Shown here piece after piece: positions 9,001 to 12,000 of a stretch of 17,049 bases of DNA; position 1 is the stretch's first letter; each line of letters opens with the position of its first letter. The DNA is from a virus. Lineage: Duplodnaviria; Heunggongvirae; Uroviricota; Caudoviricetes. Where the stretch lies: IMG/VR virus record IMGVR_UViG_2585427751_000001, one strand, 5' to 3'. Made by a program: the position numbers.

Positions 9001-12000
9001 CACACTTGCTTGGTTATGGCGAGCAGGGGATGTGATGTTAACCGCCTGCCAGAATGTTACTCCACTTCTTCAGGTTGCGGAGCACCGCGAAGCTGGTCGC
9101 TTTACTTCTATCGGGCAAGAATATCCCCAGATACTACATAAGGCGCGCGAAATCCTTGCCAGAGAAACGGCACATGTAAAACTCCAGCCTTGGCAGGATA
9201 ATAAGTGGAGCAGGGTGTTGCCATATTTCCGTCAGAATCTGTTGCAATAAAGTCACTAGTTAGAAATACTGCCAGCATTCTACGATAACGGAAGTGCTGG
9301 CATTTTTTGGGGTAATGTGCGAGTCCATTTCATAAAATACGGGGGCTGTAAACTGGACGAAATAATCTAAAAGATACCATTACCAGTAGCATTTAAATCG
9401 CTATGTGCCGATACGGATAAAATTATATTGATTGTTCACATACCTTATTGGATATTACTGAGGGGTATTTATATAAGGTGTAACGATAATGTGGAACTTT
9501 GACAGTGCCGACTTAAGTGCAATAGCAGCAGGCATTTCTGCGTTTGGCACATTAGCCGCAGCGGGGTCGGCGCTTGCAAGTTGGTACACGTCAAAAAAAG
9601 CGCTGCAGCTACAAAATAGAGTTTACCTTTATGAGTCTTTAAAGGCTTGCGCTGAGAGAGCCAATACATCAGCTAAAGATAAGCGCGGATCTGAATGGAG
9701 CGTTAATGATGCAGCGGATATCATCAGGTGCCTGGTACGGGCGATGGAGATCATCAAGCAGGATAGCCAGCAGAAAGAAGGTAATCAGGCATTAATGTTG
9801 AAACAGTACTTTGTTAATCTGCTAATAATGGAACTGTACGAGGAAGTTCATAACGGTGATGCGGCTGTTTCTGTTTTTAAAAGTACGGAACCTACACAAG
9901 TACTTGATAACTTATGGAACAAATGGCAGGAGGCTATAGCTTTTTTTGATATTTGGAATTACCCAGTTGTGACTGAGGAAGACTTGGCAGACTAATTTTC
10001 AGCACATTTGATTTCCCATAATCAACCAGCCATAATCATGCCATTGGAGCTTGAACAACTCCGGTGACTTCTGCGCTAAACGGGGACGTTTATGCGCACA
10101 TACAATCTAAACTCTCTTCTCCCTTCACAGATGCAGAAATGCATCTGCGATTCTCTGCATCCAACGTTTGACCTCTGCGGAGGTGAAGCGTGAACCTCCC
10201 ACAAGACGGCATCAAATTACATCGCGGCAACTTCACCGCTATCGGCCAGCAGATCCAGCCTTATCTGGAGGACGGAAAATGCTTTCGCATGGTGCTTAAA
10301 CCGTGGCGTGAGAAACGCAGTCTTTCCCAGAATGCACTCAGCCACATGTGGTACAGCGAAATCAGTGAATACCTCATCAGCAGGGGGAAATCGTTCGCTA
10401 CCGCAGCATGGGTAAAAGATGCTCTCAAACACACATATCTCGGTTATGAAACCAAAGACCTGGTTGATGTCGTAACCGGTGATATCACCACTATCCAGTC
10501 GTTACGCCATACCTCCGATCTTGATACCGGAGAGATGTATGTCTTCCTGTGTAAGGTTGAAGCCTGGGCGATGAATATTGGTTGCCACCTGACTATTCCA
10601 CAGAGCTGCGAGTTTCAGCTGCTGCGCGACAAGCAGGAGGCGTAATGGCTACACCGCTTATTCGTGTCATGAACGGACACATCTACAGAGTACCAAATCG
10701 TCGTAAGCGTAAACCTGAGCTGAAGCCATCCGAAATACCAACACTGCTCGGATATACCGCCAGCCTGGTTGATAAAAAATGGTTGCGACTGGCAGCAAGG
10801 AGGAGTCATGGCTGATTTGAGAAAAGCAGCGCGTGGTCGGGAATGCCAGGTAAGAATCCCTGGCGTATGTAATGGCAACCCTGAAACGTCTGTACTGGCA
10901 CATATCCGGCTGACTGGATTGTGCGGCACCGGTACGAAACCGCCAGACCTGATTGCCACCATTGCATGTTCTGCCTGCCACGACGAAATCGACCGCCGCA
11001 CGTATTTTGTTGACGCTGGATATGCAAAAGAATGCGCGCTGGAAGGTATGGCGAGAACGCAGGTTATCTGGCTGAAAGAGGGGGTAATTAAGGCGTGAAT
11101 ACTTACCACATCACACTACCCTGGCCGCCGAGCAATAACCGCTACTACCGCCATAATCGAGGGCGCACGCACATCAGCGCAGAAGGGCAGGCATACCGCG
11201 ATAACGTCGCCCGAATCATTAAAGGCTCAATGCTGGATATCGGTCTGGCTATGCCTGTGAAAATCCGCATTGAGTGCCACATGCCGGATCGCCGTCGCCG
11301 TGACCTGGATAATCTGCAAAAAGCCGCTTTTGACGCACTCACTAAAGCAGGTTTCTGGCTGGATGATGAGCTGGTCGTTGATTACCGCGTTGTGAAGATG
11401 CCTGTTACCAAAGGTGGGAAGCTGGAACTGACCATCACTGAACTGGGAGATGAATGATGTTTGAGTCTTATATGGCAGAACGTCTTCGCCGCCGCTGGGT
11501 GCGCCTGCGCTTATATCGTTTCCCCGGTTCTGTTTTGACCGATTACCGAATACTGAAGAGTTACGCCAAAACCCTGACAGGAGCAGGAGTATGAAGTCAG
11601 AGATAACAATCAACTAATACTGTTTTGTTGATTTTTGCTTGTAATTGGCGTTCTGGTCTGATTTTTGTGGAGTAAGTTGATGCGTGATATTCAGATGGTT
11701 CTTGAGCGTTGGGGAGCGTGGGCTGCAAGTGGTAACACCGGGGTGGACTATTCTCCGATCGCTGCCGGATTCAAAGGACTTTTACCATCTGCCACTAAAC
11801 CACGTCCGGCCTGCTGCGATGATGACGGACTTATCATTGAAAACTGTCTTGCTCGTCTGAAGCAGAAAAAACCTGAGGAGTATTCGCTTCTCATTGCTCA
11901 TTATTTGTTGCGAATATCAAAAAGACAGATAGCCAGGACGAGAAAGAAAAGCGAAAAAGCAATACGAATTGAGATGCAGATAGCCGAAGGGTTTATTGAC

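Follow-up and report, generated by a model that had tools for sequence, protein, structure and literature searches.

Introduction

It is known that the morons of lambdoid phages are units of a promoter, a gene and a terminator, lambda bor and lom and HK97 gp15 being examples, and that the signal-arrest-release (SAR) endolysins and the antiholin RI lie N-in/C-out in the membrane with periplasmic domains. P22 SieA (164 amino acids, aa) and SieB of P22 and lambda (192 aa) are small prophage-encoded proteins, and P22 sieA adjoins the mnt-arc-ant module and has its own promoter. SNIPE, also named PD-lambda-1, is a nuclease bound to the membrane, which cleaves phage DNA while it is being injected and works from the inner face (PMC13190303). 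The gene described here codes for a 168-aa protein of PHROG family 1779 and lies on the plus strand between ant and the nin genes of a Caudoviricetes virus (IMG/VR record IMGVR_UViG_2585427751_000001), whose stretch of 17,049 nucleotides (nt) is called the window throughout. Comparison with its relatives makes it probable that the locus is a genuine accessory cassette, which has a promoter to itself and codes for a non-enzymatic protein tethered to the membrane.

Like the morons, the gene is single and is present or absent between conserved neighbours, with a conserved candidate promoter of its own, a predicted terminator upstream and, in relatives, a terminator downstream. The window copy differs from them in having no strong terminator of its own and in its sense orientation inside the early operon, and tblastn against the phage collection revealed no sequence relation to any characterised moron product. 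In size the protein resembles SieA and SieB, and its gene, like sieA, adjoins an ant module; however, the position relative to ant and the predicted architecture differ, and hhalign of the family profile gave probabilities of 0.1% against P22 SieA and 0.9% against SieB. With SNIPE, the protein would share the membrane tether and the cytoplasm-facing working domain and, in phage PhiR26_1, SNIPE is encoded in the same ren-to-nin slot, approximately 1.6 kb upstream of the 168-aa gene. SNIPE is, however, a 500-aa nuclease encoded on the opposite strand, whereas the 168-aa protein has no nuclease or catalytic signature; the window phage lacks SNIPE. An acidic N-tail, a basic C-flank and the lack of a signal-peptide n-region are shared with N-out/C-in proteins of the Pf3-coat type. 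The N-terminal helix is similar to SAR domains in its richness in Gly, Ala, Ser and Thr, but the charge distribution predicts an orientation (N-out/C-in) opposite to that of SAR proteins.

Results and Discussion

The 168-aa gene and its family

The gene is defined by two features:

9489-9995 (+), coding sequence of the 168-aa protein, PHROG 1779; ATG open reading frame (ORF), profile match, homologues and ratio of non-synonymous to synonymous substitution rates (dN/dS)
9475-9480 (+), Shine-Dalgarno sequence AAGGTG, 8 nt before the ATG; read from the sequence

An earlier note on this DNA, made without database searches, had described a 168-aa ORF between ant and nin with a good ribosome-binding site, and both were recovered. 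The 939-bp stretch under study, which ends just before the NinB start (10190), shares 99.8% identity with Escherichia phage PhiR5_1 (PV340545) and 97% with PhiR26_1. The protein matched the profile of PHROG 1779 at full length and without any difference (residues 1-168 against profile positions 2-169 of 169, E 1.8e-99, 331.6 bits); this family has no assigned function, and membership explains nothing. Homologues at 47-100% identity were retrieved, and the family as a whole amounted to 34 representatives among 1.84 billion proteins, with identities from 100% down to approximately 20%; all database names were either 'hypothetical' or 'phage protein'. Its length and motifs were kept down to 20-25% identity, and dN/dS was approximately 0.1 with respect to relatives at 72% and 68% identity. 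These comparisons indicate that ORF 9489-9995 is a real gene under purifying selection and not a chance frame.

The homology search which the earlier note had proposed gave the full-length PHROG match on the one hand and, on the other, neither a relation to SieA or SieB nor a PADLOC model. Nothing meaningful was obtained for the window protein in Pfam, NCBIfam or PADLOC, Pfam being also empty for the 34 family members, and the defence-protein models of PADLOC-DB 2.0.0, a library dated 2023 that covers systems up to then, yielded 0 families at E up to 1. A sequence-profile search of the PDB gave no match for the protein, tblastn of the phage collection found homologues only in two ECOR-derived phages, PhiR5_1 and PhiR26_1, and the literature search returned nothing on PhiR5_1, PV340545 or ylcH.

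A decaying or functionless ORF that hitch-hikes with the 3' end of ant was also considered, and a few observations speak for it. Near-identical E. coli alleles (the window against the fetched loci L002, L020 and L041) show 4-6 non-synonymous changes versus 1 synonymous change, for instance 6 to 1, tiny counts which are too small to diagnose positive selection. In L051 (4995-5507; protein P0002, 77% identity), a scrambled Cys/Gly-rich N-terminus replaces the Ala-rich helix, which suggests a frameshifted region, and in L059 (4971-5309) the E. coli copy is shortened to 112 aa and its N-terminus is replaced; the two versions are possibly natural helix-less variants or pseudogenes. Decay is nevertheless hardly credible, given the low dN/dS over longer distances, the retention of length and motifs, the ORF that stays intact beside pseudogenes and the occurrence of the gene also without ant.

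Upstream region and candidate promoter

Four features were located from ant to the start of the gene:

8501-9250 (+), ant; BRO-N and P22_AR_C domains, match to the PHROG anti-repressor Ant
9270-9308 (+), predicted intrinsic terminator after ant, stem UGCCAGCAUU / AGUGCUGGCA and then U6; fold -18.5 kcal/mol, z -2.4
9428-9456 (+), candidate sigma-70-like promoter, -35 TTGATT (9428-9433), 17-bp spacer, -10 GATATT (9451-9456); conservation
9440-9468 (+), inverted repeat ATACCTT (9440-9446) / AGGGGTAT (9461-9468) around the -10 hexamer; 4 of 6 lineages

The gap between ant and the gene measures 238 nt and has a GC content of 0.366 versus 0.474 for the window, in agreement with the AT-rich upstream region described earlier. 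The terminator, which is predicted to insulate the gene from ant, was missed by a simple scan because its loop is longer than 8 nt.

Six lineages were compared upstream of the gene, namely the window, PhiR26_1, L051, L053, L057 and L006/L007, with protein identities of 50-100%. Their homology starts approximately 75 nt before the ATG, and the invariant columns are TTG.T. and GATATTA, exactly 17 bp apart, while the flanks diverge. Since these lineages are saturated at synonymous sites, the conservation of the element implies constraint. Exactly one copy of it is present per locus, always before the 168-aa gene; just upstream of the -35 hexamer there is an A/T-rich stretch, and the transcript is predicted to start near 9463. 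From the invariance of the hexamers and of their spacing, and from the private character of the element, we infer that the gene has its own sigma-70-like promoter, as the earlier note had supposed.

The inverted repeat around the -10 hexamer, which takes the form ATACCYT-N13-AGGGGTAT across four lineages, may be an operator or may form a hairpin in read-through transcripts; no second copy of it was found in the window. When IMG/VR was scanned for the promoter plus inverted-repeat motif, 41 matches were obtained, a number close to the chance expectation, and the gene was found only at known loci. Readings of this promoter region and of the one before ylcH (see below) as sites for FNR (TTGAT-N4-ATCAA), CRP or IHF or as DnaA boxes were rejected by eye, due to wrong spacing or lack of conservation.

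In the distant homologues L011 (approximately 4890-4940), L060 (approximately 4840-4890) and L012 (approximately 4850-4900), a perfect TATAAT right after the upstream stop codon replaces TTGNTN/GATATT, and a GC-rich hairpin (CCCCTC...GAGGGG) comes next. This hairpin contains the Shine-Dalgarno sequence in two of the three loci, where a U-run comes after it just before the ATG.

Distribution in the ren-to-nin slot

The 168-aa gene was found in 178-181 of 5,426 complete E. coli genomes and the adjacent backbone, which matches the window from about 10004-10032 to 10189, in 2,887 of the same 5,426. Its position is always the right edge of the variable slot that separates the nin region from the replication/ant genes. 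Within E. coli, the gene and the 238-nt upstream region move as one block, and what precedes this block is a complete ant, a truncated remnant of ant or a shorter rha; in DLP12-like defective prophages the gene stands in place of ybcL-ybcM of K-12. Slots without the gene hold other small genes between ren and ylcH, such as ybcL-ybcM in DLP12 or assorted hypothetical genes. Because the gene is present or absent between the shared ren and ylcH-ybcN/ninB, and other small genes fill the slot elsewhere, its status as cargo, that is as an accessory gene, is well supported by these genome comparisons. The earlier note had also called it cargo, and had taken its composition as a mark of this status. 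The first part was borne out and the second was not: the gene has a GC content of 0.44 and the window one of 0.474, and other parts of the window are far richer in AT, so that the compositional case for a foreign origin is weak.

In the fetched loci, copies with a protein identity of 95% or more were full length in 44 of 45 cases. In strain 1409 and in the O104:H4 strain 2011C-3493, an ant remnant, ybcK, emrE and rusA are among the pseudogene neighbours, and the 168-aa ORF is intact. This O104:H4 copy (L110, gene O3K_RS27165) belongs to the 2011 outbreak lineage, and the gene was also present and intact in the enterotoxigenic E. coli (ETEC) strain B7A (hit H51); the O104:H4 copy, the one of these two whose neighbourhood was looked at, lies within a DLP12-like prophage with pseudogene neighbours.

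Diverged loci were searched with a 12-sequence alignment of the closer homologues. The homologues obtained (43-77% identity, other enterobacterial phages) are on the same strand as O/P or DnaB, directly before ninB or DUF1367; upstream of them are unrelated DUF551 genes, a 282-aa gene of unknown function or a methylase-like gene.

Downstream region and nin leader

The stretch after the gene contains the following elements:

10008-10036 (+), promoter-like TTGATT-17-CATAAT (scan 9/12), overlapping the inverted repeat TTGATT (10008-10013) / AATCAA (10020-10025)
10042-10066 (+), hairpin 1, CAUUGGAG / CUCCGGUG, with the conserved loop C(U/C)UGAACAA; folding and RNAalifold
10072-10098 (+), hairpin 2, with a Shine-Dalgarno-like GGGGA in the loop and the ylcH AUG in the 3' arm; folding
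10092-10193 (+), ylcH/orf33-like ORF of 33 codons, whose TGA overlaps the ninB GTG (GTGA); translation
10128-10147 (+), hairpin 3 inside ylcH, CAGAUGCA-GAAA-UGCAUCUG; -14 kcal/mol, z -3.3

The earlier note had seen in this place approximately 190 bp of noncoding, AT-rich DNA behind an isolated gene. This picture has to be revised on all three points. The 194 nt after the gene have a GC content of 0.45-0.48, they carry a short ORF, a promoter-like inverted repeat and three hairpins that belong to the widespread nin backbone, and this nin leader begins no more than 12 nt past the stop codon.

The TTGATT...CATAAT element is given as a putative -35/-10 pair in the phage 82 record X92588 and was kept in 18 diverse loci. 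The stems of hairpin 1 differ among loci with pairing kept, and RNAalifold reported both-sided changes at 4 pairs. For hairpin 2, two other stem versions (AUUUAAG/CUUAAAU and the form of L012) keep the pairing as judged by eye, MAFFT having misaligned the stem types. An equivalent of ylcH is known as orf33 in phage 82 and as ylcH in DLP12, and was called by the Prokaryotic Genome Annotation Pipeline (PGAP) in every prophage sampled; as in these two phages, the window has a 33-codon ORF coupled to ybcN/ninB with the same promoter-like inverted repeat before it.

In phage 82, PhiR26_1 and L053, a U-run comes after hairpin 3, which was flagged there as terminator-like, whereas in the window this run is broken (CGAUUCUCUGC) and the terminator scan of the window gave no match at the hairpin. 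In P22, the tiny ORF ninA extends across an annotated terminator just before ninB, as ylcH spans hairpin 3; the window departs from the phage 82/P22 arrangement in its interrupted U-run. In a lysogen, transcription from the gene promoter would thus encounter a weak terminator at best, approximately 135-165 nt past the stop. The relatives L053 and L009 have a predicted strong terminator (AGGCCUCUCCGGAGGCCUUUUU) 40-50 nt past the stop of the gene, and L057 has the same hairpin with a shorter U-run. In L053 and L009, this terminator completes, as judged from sequence, the classical unit of promoter, gene and terminator.

The layout of the nin-leader cassette, that is the TTGATT/AATCAA repeat with the -35/-10 pair, the covarying hairpin with a CCUGAACAAC-type loop, the hairpin over the ylcH start and the terminator-like hairpin, was observed at 10003-10195 of the window, twice in L002 (3819-4018 and 5753-5952) and also in L020, L031, L033, L035, L038 and L061. 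An Rfam scan of 9000-10400 gave no match, and this widespread lambdoid cassette has no Rfam family. PhiR26_1-type loci carry it twice, as direct repeats of approximately 150 bp around the block formed by a 54-aa ORF, rha and the 168-aa gene. Since the cassette is duplicated around the block of rha and the gene, we suggest that it serves as a control region of the nin operon and as a recombination linker for module exchange.

The place of the gene before this leader raises the question of whether it is an accessory gene of the pR operon for early lytic growth, in a position like that of ren. Expressed mainly after infection or induction, it would then act for the phage itself in counter-defence, host takeover or membrane remodelling, and would not serve to protect the lysogen. 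In favour of this are its constant location on the strand of O/P/nin directly before the nin genes, the distance of just 71-82 nt from the preceding gene that several relatives show, the fact that no strong terminator lies between the gene and ylcH-ninB in the window, and the presence of ren in the neighbouring slot. A conserved private promoter would, however, be unnecessary for such a gene, a predicted terminator precedes it in the window and strong ones follow it in relatives, and it is intact in defective DLP12-like prophages that lack the pR-O-P region. We regard an early-lytic role as possible but somewhat unlikely.

The protein product

Two parts of the protein stand out:

9519-9584 (+), codons 11-32, weakly hydrophobic small-residue helix, predicted N-out/C-in span; hydropathy and conservation
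9972-9992 (+), codons 162-168, acidic tail TEEDLAD; T-[DE]-[ED]-D-L-x-D

The chain is made up of an acidic N-tail (1-10), the Ala/Gly/Ser-rich helix (approximately 11-32), a K/R-rich junction, a helical bundle (approximately 35-160) and an acidic C-terminal peptide. The helix is the most conserved block of the family, with S31 invariant and A28 present in 33 of the 34 members; positions 14, 17, 18, 20, 21, 23, 24, 25, 27, 28 and 31 are at least 85% Ala/Gly/Ser/Thr and alternate with variable Ile/Val/Leu/Phe. The share of these four small residues in the helix is 74% in the window and 42-74% across the family. Because the most conserved block is one with obligate small residues, the helix would have a specific packing role and would not be a passive anchor.

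The Kyte-Doolittle maximum is 1.59 (residues 11-29) in the window and 1.5-2.5 across the family, and the simple Hessa sum amounts to +2.7 kcal/mol in the window (median of the family +1.3; positive in 30 of the 34 members), so that insertion is not assured. In the 33 single-span members, the number of K/R before the helix is 0-1 (0 in most, at most one in five of them), and 2-6 follow it. The 288-aa relative P0041 has three extra clear spans, and its loop charges of 5, 1, 5, 1 and 5 make the helix the fourth span, running out-to-in. On account of the flanking charges and of the loop charges of P0041, the protein is predicted to be tethered N-out/C-in with the bundle in the cytoplasm. The earlier note had proposed a single N-terminal hydrophobic anchor and had suggested a topology prediction; the hydrophobicity of this anchor is marginal, and the charges around it are distributed in the positive-inside manner.

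The same data bear on a soluble cytoplasmic protein in which the Ala-rich helix would be an oligomerisation element, either an Ala-zipper or a coiled-coil. The predominantly positive Hessa sums, the continuous helix 6-62 of the AlphaFold model and the small conserved residues, which suit tight packing, would fit such a protein. It is distinctly unlikely all the same, since most members reach a Kyte-Doolittle value of 1.6 or more, the charges on the two sides of the helix are strictly asymmetric, bulky hydrophobic residues occupy every non-small position, and the register of P0041, with its three clear spans, makes the helix the fourth.

A helix with 74% Ala/Gly/Ser/Thr and marginal hydrophobicity is SAR-like in composition, and a lysis-timing regulator whose helix leaves the membrane when the proton-motive force drops was also considered. 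The gene, however, is neither in nor near the lysis cassette, the predicted orientation is opposite to that of SAR endolysins and RI, and no match to a catalytic or holin-binding domain was found, which makes a function of this kind very unlikely. Two other readings of the N-terminus were rejected: a cleavable signal peptide, since there is no basic n-region, K/R come directly after the helix and A-x-A is not conserved, and a lipoprotein, since there is no lipobox cysteine.

The AlphaFold model, obtained with the 34-sequence alignment, is all-helical with a mean predicted local distance difference test (pLDDT) of 79, and shows the long helix 6-62 and a compact bundle to approximately 153; structure searches with the model gave no specific fold relative. 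The nearly invariant residues are S31, A28, Q42, L51, N59, W70, A85, I89, F108, L112 and W146, all of them hydrophobic, small, Trp, Gln or Asn, and the family alignment contains no invariant charged residues of catalytic type. Since no catalytic-looking constellation is present among the invariant residues, the protein was treated as non-enzymatic. An assignment to the HEPN ribonucleases was rejected (best Foldseek E 0.6-2.8, template modelling score, TM, 0.20-0.28; no conserved His or R-x(4-6)-H). The acidic tail is invariant in the 12 closer homologues, and, of the 27-28 members with residues there, 24-25 retain D165, L166 and D168; the motif closes the chain in most members, and the tail looks like a docking peptide.

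Proposed role of the locus

We propose that the locus is a moron-type cassette of lambdoid phages, mobile and with a single accessory gene, placed at the right edge of the slot before the nin leader. Its own sigma-70 promoter would drive the 168-aa gene from the prophage; during lytic growth, the gene would also be read by N-antiterminated transcription from pR, and at least part of its transcripts would stop at the tR2-like hairpin within ylcH. The conserved Ala/Gly/Ser-rich helix would most likely span the inner membrane N-out/C-in and leave a helical bundle of approximately 130 residues in the cytoplasm. The protein would then work by protein-protein contacts on the cytoplasmic side of the membrane, with its small-residue helix packed against itself or a membrane partner and its acidic tail docking a soluble partner. 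Since the domain is predicted to be cytoplasmic, a classical periplasmic block of injection fits poorly and is less likely; an abortive-infection sensor or effector, or interference with the entry complex from inside, fits better and would be the likeliest role.

This full statement, which joins the cassette of moron type, its private promoter and its membrane-tethered non-enzymatic product to a role in conflict between phages, is tentative and falls somewhat short of an even chance; the role in phage conflict, taken by itself, is possible and still somewhat unlikely, and an exclusion or abortive-infection function of the protein, as imagined in the earlier note, is conjecture. In favour of a benefit to the lysogen are the promoter that the gene would have to itself, its insulation from ant, the terminators that follow it in relatives, the defence genes in the slot of sister phages and the persistence of the gene in decaying prophages.

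Several observations weigh against the proposal. The candidate promoter was singled out by conservation and was missed by the promoter scan because its 8/12 consensus matches are below the cut-off of 9/12. In the window, the gene has no strong terminator to itself and the nin leader cassette begins at most 12 nt past its stop, and the sense orientation in the early-right operon, with short gaps in relatives, fits a ren-like early lytic gene equally well. The positive Hessa sums do not assure insertion of the helix, and none of the known defence or exclusion families (PADLOC, P22 SieA, SieB) was matched. Finally, in the records of PhiR5_1 and PhiR26_1 the depositors put names to HipA/HipD, PD-lambda-1, Ren and Bor, but the 168-aa gene stayed 'hypothetical'.

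A bolder version can be formulated, in which the family is a single-gene prophage immunity determinant with the small-residue helix as effector. The bundle and the acidic tail would sense an infection cue, for example a protein of the arriving phage or a part of the entry complex on the inside of the membrane, and the helix would switch in order to abort the infection or close the entry. This switch would consist in oligomerising, or in inserting and releasing, as in SAR domains in the opposite orientation. We consider this version quite improbable.

What was known is an uncharacterised PHROG family, and what is new is a fuller description of a gene that is otherwise an ordinary 'hypothetical phage protein'. 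If the role in phage-phage conflict were true, the gene would be a very small, single-gene and non-enzymatic addition to the defence repertoire of prophages. Approximately 3% of the complete E. coli genomes have it, O104:H4 outbreak strains and ETEC B7A among them, and its compact conserved candidate promoter and simple architecture make it an easily dissected candidate. The anatomy of the region is also corrected: on its right, the ren-to-nin slot is bounded by a conserved leader cassette, in which the ylcH mini-ORF spans a terminator-like hairpin.

Other genes of the window

The annotation of PhiR5_1 follows a lambda-like order. The order is exo-bet-gam-kil, a HipA-like pair, cI, cro, cII, O, P and ren; after ren come a small AT-rich minus-strand island, an arc-like gene, the anti-repressor and the 168-aa 'hypothetical protein', and then NinB, NinE, YbcO, RusA, YlcG, Q and the lysis genes. 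The anti-repressor, called ant here, is annotated as Rha in that record.

Downstream of cI, where lambda has rexAB, the window contains an AT-rich (GC 0.31-0.40) two-gene unit on the minus strand (2156-3807), which codes for a 282-aa HipA-like kinase (Pfam HipA_2) and a 268-aa DUF3037 protein named 'HipD antitoxin' in PhiR5_1; both proteins gave weak matches to PADLOC PDC-M66A/B. A second AT-rich island on the minus strand (7350-8283, GC 0.32-0.38) follows ren. It includes a 132-aa ORF (7538-7936) without Pfam, PHROG or PADLOC match, in place of which the PhiR5_1 record has two short ORFs, and this ORF abuts a gene for a 115-aa Arc/Mnt-like ribbon-helix-helix protein (7936-8283).

A module similar to P22 immI (7936-9250) is situated between ren and nin, in the early-right region, whereas in P22 it is next to the tail genes. 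It consists of the divergent Arc/Mnt-like repressor, a 47-aa Arc-like ORF (8368-8511) that overlaps the start of ant, and ant itself.

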